Sequence record: AJ621579.1
Direction: 5' to 3' (one strand)
DNA from: Enterobacteria phage TuIa
DNA length: 1,418 nucleotides
Shown: piece by piece, positions 1 to 514 of the stretch
Numbering within the stretch: position 1 is the stretch's first letter
Layout: each line of letters opens with the position of its first letter
The notes under the pieces: generated by a model
Told to the model about the DNA's origin: nothing
Database searches by the model: none
The model's input: only the letters and a program-made list of their open reading frames with translations
Position numbers and translations under genes: made by a program

Positions 1-23
1 GGAAAGGTTGTTGCATAATTTTA

Positions 24-48
24 GGGAGACTTCGGTCTCCCTTTTGTG
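24..48 (+). terminator. Rho-independent terminator: 7-bp GC-rich stem GGGAGAC/GTCTCCC with a TTCG tetraloop, followed by TTTTGTG
   Basis: Read directly: 24-30 GGGAGAC, 31-34 TTCG, 35-41 GTCTCCC (perfect inverted repeat), then T-run 42-45. On the minus strand the hairpin is followed by an A-rich rather than U-rich tract, so it is oriented to stop a + strand transcript from an upstream gene. Confidence 0.7.
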
Positions 49-60
49 CGTTTAGGGCAG

Positions 61-106
61 AAAAAGTTAAAAAAGGTGTTTACTCTCCTGTAGGATGTGT
101 TACTAT
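61..106 (+). promoter_or_regulatory. Sigma70-type early promoter (T4-early-like): A-rich UP-like tract, -35 GTTTAC(T), extended -10 TGtTACTAT
   Basis: A-rich tract 61-76 (aaaaagttaaaaaagg); GTTTAC at 78-83 (hexamer TTTACT 79-84); TG at 98-99 followed by TACTAT 101-106; spacer 16 bp. Predicted transcription start near 113-115. Located immediately after a terminator and about 45 nt before the ORF1 start. Confidence 0.6.
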
Positions 107-140
107 AGACTTGTACCACCTAATCGATAAAACAAACCGG

Positions 141-144
141 AGAA
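141..144 (+). promoter_or_regulatory. Shine-Dalgarno site (GGAG) for ORF1
   Basis: GGAG at 141-144, 4 nt (aata... spacing region aataaa overlaps) before ATG 149-151; A-rich spacer typical of T4 translation initiation regions. Confidence 0.75.
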
Positions 145-148
145 TAAA

Positions 149-514
149 ATGAACTACATCAACTTCGAACGTAAATATGTTTCTAACGGTATCGCTGGTT
201 CTTCTGAAGTTATTTGCTTATGGAAACACGAAAACGGTACAGATTGTGAAATCGAACAGTGCATGACTCCTAATTACGTTTATATGCGATTTGAAAACGG
301 CATCACGGTTTCAATCACGATGGAAGGTTCCAACTTCAAAATTGCATTAGATGACGATTTCCGTCAACGTGATTTAGGTACTCATCCTTGCTGGAACGGT
401 GTTAATCGTAAACTTCTGGTTAAAACTTGGATTCGTCATATCCTGAGTAACCGAGCTAAACCTGAACATCTCGAAGCAATCTTTGATGTAGTTCTTAACG
501 AATTCGATATCTAA
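149..514 (+). CDS. Hypothetical phage early protein, 121 aa, no recognisable motif (ORFan candidate); contains a Cys/His cluster
   Basis: ATG start with GGAG SD, TAA stop at 512-514. I re-translated the whole frame by hand and it matches the ORF track. Codon choice is T4-like (cgt, ggt, aaa, gaa, gtt, tct preferred). Sits directly downstream of the early promoter. Confidence 0.8.
   Translation: MNYINFERKYVSNGIAGSSEVICLWKHENGTDCEIEQCMTPNYVYMRFENGITVSITMEGSNFKIALDDDFRQRDLGTHPCWNGVNRKLLVKTWIRHILSNRAKPEHLEAIFDVVLNEFDI

Follow-up and report, generated by a model that had tools for sequence, protein, structure and literature searches.

We consider it likely that positions 16-151 of the DNA analysed here are a PeSL-type (promoter early stem-loop) cassette, made chimeric by a cassette-to-cassette recombination that removed gene 30.8. 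The window (the whole stretch analysed, 1,418 nt of record AJ621579.1 from Enterobacteria phage TuIa) was placed by sequence comparison in the rIII–30.9–30.7–30.6–30.5 early region of a Mosigvirus (RB69-like T-even phage), a block that sits upstream of the DNA ligase gene 30. Its identity is 96-97% to many Mosigvirus genomes and ~78% to T4-like genomes. The alignment to Mosigvirus relatives falls into two pieces, between which the relatives carry an extra ~440 bp. The complete genome of the closest relative, NRG-P0074, was used for genome-wide counts. The features of the window, all on the + strand, are:

1-18, + strand: 3' end of the gene 30.9 homologue (last five codons, …GKVVA; stop TAA at 16-18), aligned with the annotated gp30.9 coding sequences of SA79RD, NRG-P0074 and mar005P1.
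23-42, + strand: C(UUCG)G hairpin of 8 bp (A23-U42 plus a 7-bp core, 24-30 with 35-41; loop 31-34), from folding, covariation and the annotations of relatives.
43-53, + strand: U-rich tail UUUGUGCGUUU, opening with 4 U when U42 is counted; read from the sequence, a U-rich tail being kept in all lineages.
61-74, + strand: A-rich, UP-element-like tract at about -60 to -40; read from the sequence and from a family consensus that is A-rich upstream of the -35.
78-84, + strand: -35 element GTTTACT (hexamer TTTACT, 79-84), matching TTTACW (Comeau 2014) and the family matrix.
98-106, + strand: extended -10 element, TGt (98-100) plus TACTAT (101-106), matching TAYWAT plus TGn.
139-153, + strand: Shine-Dalgarno (SD) / RegB-type box GGAGAATAAAA (139-149) plus ATGAA, the crossover interval of the 30.8 deletion; from consensus match and junction mapping.
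149-514, + strand: gene 30.7 homologue, 121 aa.
521-538, + strand: second C(UUCG)G hairpin, UGGGAGC-UUCG-GCUCCCA, without a U tail and followed by an SD, GAGG, at 541-544; from folding.
550-1164, + strand: 204-aa ORF at the 30.6 position (long version, 30.6L), function unknown.
1164-1194, + strand: second early promoter (GTTTACA, 18-nt spacer, TATAAT), from the family matrix.
1221-1418, + strand: gene 30.5 homologue, 65 aa plus stop (tblastn 66% identity to T4 gp30.5; phrog_1690).

The first-pass annotation had placed the hairpin and promoter before two unrecognisable ORFs, which does not hold for 149-514, a clear member of Pfam PF06919 (Phage_T4_Gp30_7, E = 1.4e-50); it does hold for 550-1164, which matches phrog_17531 only. 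The T4 genes 30.5-30.8 are classed as early at both the RNA and protein level (PMC9697503 supplement).

PeSLs were described as units with an upstream stop, an AT-rich tract, a sigma-70-like early promoter, a stem-loop, an SD and a start codon, the stem-loop taking any of five positions, one of which is upstream of the -35 (Arbiol 2010). Promoter and terminator activity of PeSLs was determined with lacZ fusions (Arbiol 2010), in which their stem-loops terminated about as well as rrnB T1 (PMC2839356). Recombination between the cassettes flanking an ORFan was proposed to excise the ORFan and leave a chimeric cassette, and excised mini-circles arising in this way belong to the PeSL picture (Arbiol 2010). 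For T-even phages the promoter was given as TTTACW..N17..TAYWAT, with a stem-loop just upstream that is often AGnA-loop-TCnT (Comeau 2014). The window presents the same unit layout, with the TAA at 16-18, the A-tract at 61-74, GGAG at 139-142 and the ATG of 30.7 at 149-151; the T-even promoter, as TTTACT at 79-84 and TACTAT at 101-106 with a spacer of 16 nt (the NRG-P0074 family uses 16-18); and, in the 23-42 hairpin, the T-even stem-loop.

The hairpin reads A23-GGGAGAC(24-30)-UUCG(31-34)-GUCUCCC(35-41)-U42 and folds at -14.1 kcal/mol, versus a shuffle mean of -6.2 (z = -3.7; 1 of 200 shuffles was as stable). Its stem, AGGGAGAC-UUCG-GUCUCCCU, lies 36 nt upstream of the -35 hexamer, and the tail directly 3' of it reads UUUUGUGCGUUU. 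A generic terminator scan missed it, since only 4 U follow the 8-bp stem before a G and the threshold of the scan was 5 U in 8; given this miss and the short U tail, termination may be only partial. A rho-independent terminator is nevertheless annotated at the orthologous hairpin in three independent GenBank annotations (SA79RD, NRG-P0074 and G2285), all of TransTermHP/WebGeSTer type. Four lineages have four different stems downstream of 30.9 (Mosigvirus, AGGGAGAC/GUCUCCCU; the JS98 group, UGGGACUC/GAGUCCCA; T4, AGGACUCC/GGAGUCCU; L023-25, AGGGACUC/GAGUCCCU), and all close a C(UUCG)G loop and carry a U-rich tail. When the four stems are aligned, 100% of cells are paired and 5 of the 8 pairs are compensatory, whereas sliding the 3' arm by 1-3 columns as a control leaves at most one compensatory pair and brings pairing down to 31-63%. 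The hairpin is thus, on comparative evidence, a selected RNA structure.

The design is common in these genomes. UUCG-loop hairpins with a stem of at least 5 bp number 22 on the early strand of NRG-P0074 (5.3 expected), and UUCG is the commonest tetraloop among NRG-P0074 stems of at least 6 bp. On the minus strand of the same genome, the exact GGGAGAC-UUCG-GUCUCCC and a variant, GGGAGCC-UUCG-GGCUCCC, occur at 15049 and 85268, each followed by AUUUUUGU; UUCG hairpins on the late-gene strand indicate that late transcription units use the same hairpin design. An Rfam search returned no family at or above its gathering threshold; the best match (19.8 bits, threshold 382) covers just the terminator end of an unrelated sRNA model. 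Beyond the hairpin, the fold of the whole of 1-148 is not significant (z = -1.4) and so gives no evidence that read-through RNA sequesters the SD.

Published T4 RNA-seq data at 5 min post-infection assign 16,161 reads to the 177 nt of 30.9 and 2,025 reads to the 333 nt of 30.8, a drop of ~15-fold in reads per nt across the orthologous T4 hairpin (PMC6024815 Table S1). The drop is what termination or a stabilised 3' end of the upstream RNA, or the two together, would give, and stronger or later upstream promoters or differential RNA stability could account for it in part. The main task of the hairpin might be to stabilise or process RNA, as a barrier to 3' exonucleases or a protector of a processed end of the rIII/30.9 message, and not to terminate transcription. 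The weak U tail speaks for such a role, as does the 521-538 hairpin, which has the same C(UUCG)G design with no U tail and whose orthologues keep ultra-stable UUCG/GNRA loops, pointing to selection on RNA stability. We nonetheless think this role somewhat improbable as the main one, for the U-rich tail directly after the stem persists in all four lineages (T4 has UUUUUUAUUUU), and the three terminator annotations and the rrnB T1-like performance of PeSL stem-loops (PMC2839356) also favor termination. The two roles are not mutually exclusive.

Downstream of the hairpin, after the gap of ~15 nt between U tail and A-tract that the first-pass annotation had described, lies the promoter, which in sigma-70 terms is TTTACT, a 16-nt spacer and TACTAT, with a start predicted near 112-114. 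A generic sigma-70 scan missed it (8 of 12 consensus positions matched); because generic scans had missed both elements, each was tested against its own family and not against the E. coli consensus. A scan of NRG-P0074 for TTTACW-N16-18-TAYWAT gave 25 matches on the early strand and a single one on the other, where ~1 per strand would be expected. Beyond the hexamers, the family consensus is A-rich upstream, has a G preceding TTTAC, and flanks the -10 with TGTGt on its 5' side and AGACCTATCAAC on its 3' side. A matrix was trained on 24 other NRG-P0074 early promoters, leaving out the orthologue of the window site; on it, positions 79-106 score 26.2 bits, as is typical of the family, where the best of 200 shuffles reaches 12.9 and family members under leave-one-out score 7.9-49.4 (median 32). 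The sole other match in the window is at 1165-1194 (29.3 bits), and the minus strand of the window has none. Together with the fold z of -3.7, the matrix score upholds, at the coordinates given there, the earlier claim of a UUCG hairpin followed by an early promoter.

Chance co-occurrence of a functionless hairpin and a pair of hexamers, which would fit the failure of the generic consensus scans to flag either element, is very improbable: it is effectively refuted by the 25:1 strand bias of the promoter motif, the compensatory covariation in the stem and a matrix score far above the shuffles, and orthologous conservation from T4 to Mosigvirus also stands against it. The promoter belongs with the T4 early promoters, which form the UP/-35/TGn/-10 class (Hinton 2010, PMC2988021). 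A search for a published start site or mapped 5' end for the T4 orthologue, near map unit 130.3, found none, the DksA paper and its supplements included, and the T4 records NC_000866 and AF158101 have no regulatory features at the orthologous site. A reading as a MotA-box (middle) promoter was rejected, there being no TGCTT-type box at about -30. Short stems (at least 6 bp) near promoters were discarded as evidence, as they are about equally frequent at random positions.

In NRG-P0074 most early promoters come right after the stop codon of the gene before them and have no GC hairpin upstream. Five intergenic composites of UUCG hairpin leading to early promoter were found on the early strand of this genome (7064, 23358, 41096, 112936, 149207) and none on the other strand; with the 25 strict promoter matches they show the repeated occurrence described for PeSLs, whose copies favor hyperplastic regions (Arbiol 2010). 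The composites are only 40-60% identical overall. The longest stretches over which they match the window exactly measure 8-23 nt, and the 23-nt stretch is the entire hairpin of the copy downstream of gene 32. The search for near-identical extra copies of window 16-151 in NRG-P0074 yielded motif-level similarity only. The check for further copies that the first-pass annotation had proposed is positive as to their existence, though not as to near-identity.

Some of these promoters have a further peculiarity: inverted repeats of 9-14 bp span the -10 in 7 of the 25 (106217, 149668, 162364, 41596, 97984, 114740, 37571). At the first three the arms are TTCTCC…GTTG / CAAC…GGAGAA, so that an anti-SD within the promoter spacer is complementary to, and pairs with, the SD of the gene that follows; this pairing could arise only in RNA reading through from upstream. 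Read-through-dependent SD pairing is described for the T4 genes e, soc, 49 and I-TevI.

The 35-nt leader of 30.7 ends in the start region GGAGAATAAAATG. Here GGAGAATAAAA agrees at all 11 positions with the strong intergenic RegB/S1 cleavage consensus, GG*AGRAYARAA (Uzan & Miller 2010, PMC3014915), and because the match is full, the 30.7 message may be open to shut-off after the early period. In NRG-P0074 there are six matches to this consensus on the early strand and none on the other, with 0.43 expected. All six boxes read GGAGAAYAAAATG and lie at a start codon, and two of them flank 30.8.

It is at this box that the window departs from its relatives. The best-matching genomes all carry 30.8 between 30.9 and 30.7, with a promoter-leader unit on either side, the two units being related. 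Up to …AAACC the window matches the upstream unit; it then passes through a GGAGAA common to both units, and from T145 follows the downstream unit and 30.7. The upstream cassette thus runs into 30.7 inside the common GGAGAA(TAAAATGAA) box. The crossover interval measures 6 nt. For a parent like L013, a contig that carries 30.8 and has T at the position of T145 already in its upstream unit, it would be 15 nt (GGAGAATAAAATGAA). The missing DNA amounts to 443 bp and comprises the 30.8 ORF and the promoter cassette of 30.7 itself.

The same junction is found in AV109, AV114, AV115, PTE-Eco05 and G2285. The flanks of the window differ from those of 30.8-plus phages at 3-8 positions per 140 nt and 5-15 per 361 nt, and from those of the other 30.8-less phages at 7 per 140 nt and 23-34 per 361 nt; its leader is of the NRG-type haplotype and not of the AV109 type. 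This closer match to 30.8-plus phages, with the NRG-type leader, suggests that the same deletion arose at least twice, in the window independently of the AV109-type phages. A very short conversion patch may be an alternative to repeated deletion. The combination of an absent 30.8 with a 204-aa 30.6 was seen in none of the GenBank phage records listed, where 30.8-less phages have the 95-aa 30.6 (in G2285, 30.6 is lost) and the 204-aa 30.6 goes together with 30.8. The window would accordingly be an unsampled recombinant or an independent deletion.

A survey of 23 loci revealed a mosaic around a stable gene: 30.7 stays 90-99% identical, 30.8 is either absent or present as one of two alleles only 37-40% identical, and 30.6 is either of two unrelated proteins, of 95 or 204 aa. 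The 204-aa ORF and the 95-aa gp30.6 gave no cross-hit, and the former is, by this comparison, a replacement cassette unrelated to T4 gp30.6. Between 30.6 and 30.5, two loci (L015, L026) have an extra insert of ~310 bp (about 2190-2500) that brings an SD and ATG of its own. The Dhakaviruses JS98 and IME341 are 97-100% identical up to GGAGAATAAAATGAAAA, 30-60% across 30.8, and 100% again exactly from the GTTTAC of the downstream promoter; the swapped stretch with the 30.8 alleles thus extends from the upstream SD/ATG to the downstream GTTTAC. The two leaders that flank 30.8 in JS98 are near-identical over ~47 nt, a sign that the two cassettes have exchanged sequence with each other.

The 30.6 replacement has edges of a similar kind. 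Its left edge is the 521-538 hairpin (dG -13.1 kcal/mol, z = -3.1). Orthologues of this hairpin, including those of L023-L025, keep it with changed stems and a loop of UUCG, GAAA (GNRA-type), UUCA, UUUG or a flipped CGAA. PTE-Eco05 (about 1910-1925 of its locus, L011) has the exact reverse complement, GGGAGC-CGAA-GCTCCC, the whole hairpin being inverted at the edge of the 30.6 replacement. The 1164-1194 promoter is found only with the 204-aa cassette, and loci in which the 95-aa 30.6 is coupled to 30.5 through TAATG lack it; the mobile 30.6 unit again looks like an 'ORF plus downstream promoter', to judge from these arrangements. The 30.8 deletion junction, the 30.8 allele swap and the 30.6 replacement are events of the kind associated with PeSLs, in which flanked ORFs are inserted, deleted or replaced (Arbiol 2010).

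Not all breakpoints in the block are of this kind. The G2285 deletion (L012, 1541-1773) leaves 30.7 joined at codon ~39 to 30.5 at codon ~27; with both breakpoints inside ORFs and not at cassettes, it is a counter-example to cassette-only shuffling. It favors a rival account in which the cassettes are ordinary operon punctuation with no special recombination role, a terminator merely adjoining the promoter of the following unit, with generic short-homology or illegitimate recombination acting along with homologous exchange in co-infections, and selection for intact genes and signals placing the breakpoints. A crossover block of just 6-15 nt and the low identity (40-60%) among composites lean the same way, and so does the presence of an upstream UUCG hairpin at only 5 of at least 25 early promoters, by which the pairing is not obligatory. 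We find this account unlikely all the same: a 13-nt box that is otherwise rare (6 per genome against the 0.43 expected) stands on both sides of 30.8, the identical junction occurs on two different flank haplotypes, the JS98 leaders are homogenised over ~47 nt in a way that implies ongoing exchange, and three independent replacements or indels in the block end exactly at cassette elements.

The cassette as we envision it would work as follows. The C(UUCG)G hairpin with its U tail would end or attenuate, and probably 3'-stabilise, the rIII/30.9 transcripts. About 15 nt on, the A-tract, GTTTACT, TGt and TACTAT would serve as a T4-type early promoter for unmodified host sigma-70 RNA polymerase, with transcription restarting near position 113. 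The leader end, GGAGAATAAAATG, would provide both the ribosome-binding site of 30.7 and a match to the RegB/S1 consensus, at which we infer cleavage. Such a cassette would insulate 30.7 and the later genes from upstream transcription. Its hairpin, promoter and leader are the ones found ahead of 30.8 in the closest relatives, and everything past the start of the GGAGAA box is the 30.7 start region. The 443-bp unit was presumably lost when two tandem cassettes recombined at the 6-15-nt SD/start box common to both. On this reading the breakpoints would have been fixed by cassette homology and not by selection. A more speculative and quite doubtful extension is that GGAGAAYAAAATG(AA), the 13-15-nt SD/RegB/start box, and not the promoter or hairpin, is a recurrent quasi-site-specific joint at which 'ORF plus downstream promoter' units would be excised or inserted in the early regions of T-even phages. 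If so, the repeated 30.8 deletion and the JS98 homogenisation would reflect a dedicated short-homology exchange, for example by excised mini-circles, and not chance microhomology.

Each mechanism invoked, be it C(UUCG)G hairpins, T4 early promoters, RegB sites or cassette shuffling, had been established or at least proposed before, and the finding opens no new question and should not surprise a T4 specialist. Its use is as a clean natural example of a one-gene deletion, probably arisen more than once, whose junction lies in a start-region box common to two tandem cassettes, in a block whose genes 30.8 and 30.6 are exchanged as whole units. As to annotation, TuIa 30.7 would be driven by what is elsewhere the promoter of 30.8.

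Among known systems, T4 intercistronic regions reportedly carry C(UUCG)G hairpins, a class attributed to work by Tuerk and colleagues in PNAS in 1988. The TuIa hairpins share its GC-rich stem, C-G-closed UUCG loop and intergenic position, and differ from it in nothing of substance, both hairpins of the window being typical; the TuIa tail at 43-53 is shorter than the orthologous T4 tail, UUUUUUAUUUU. With T4 early promoters, which drive genes early in T4, the TuIa promoter has in common the A-rich upstream tract, the GTTTAC-type -35, TGn and a TAnnAT -10 (PMC2988021); its -10 is TACTAT, where the T4 class has TATAAT, and TACTAT is the majority form in the Mosigvirus family consensus. The leader box resembles RegB/S1 sites in its consensus match and in acting as the SD of an early gene (PMC3014915). 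The regB of RB69 is reported to be divergent (PMC3014915), so cleavage specificity in Mosigvirus could differ from that consensus.

PeSLs have been published for the pairs RB49/phi1 (Arbiol 2010), PST/T4 and nt-1/KVP40 (Comeau 2014). The TuIa cassette comes from a group, the RB69 group (Mosigvirus), analysed in neither paper, and would extend the PeSL description to it. It differs from published PeSLs in several respects. (i) The spacer is 16 nt, versus the N17 of T4/PST PeSLs. (ii) The crossover lies in the SD/start box, versus in or next to the stem-loop in RB49/phi1. (iii) The RB49/phi1 PeSLs are conserved over ~100 bp and the Mosigvirus copies are less alike; the PeSL model calls on ~100 bp of homology, whereas the TuIa crossover block of 6-15 nt is microhomology. 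The likenesses cover the published description as far as it concerns sequence: with T4/PST PeSLs it shares a stem-loop just upstream of the promoter and the TTTACW..TAYWAT hexamers, and every sequence-level feature by which PeSLs are defined can be recognised in the window element. The PeSL reading of the first-pass annotation is in this respect supported, as far as sequence goes, by published motifs and by a variable gene block, in which, as for the PeSLs of Arbiol and Comeau, a gene flanked by two cassettes in one phage gives way to a single chimeric cassette in a relative.
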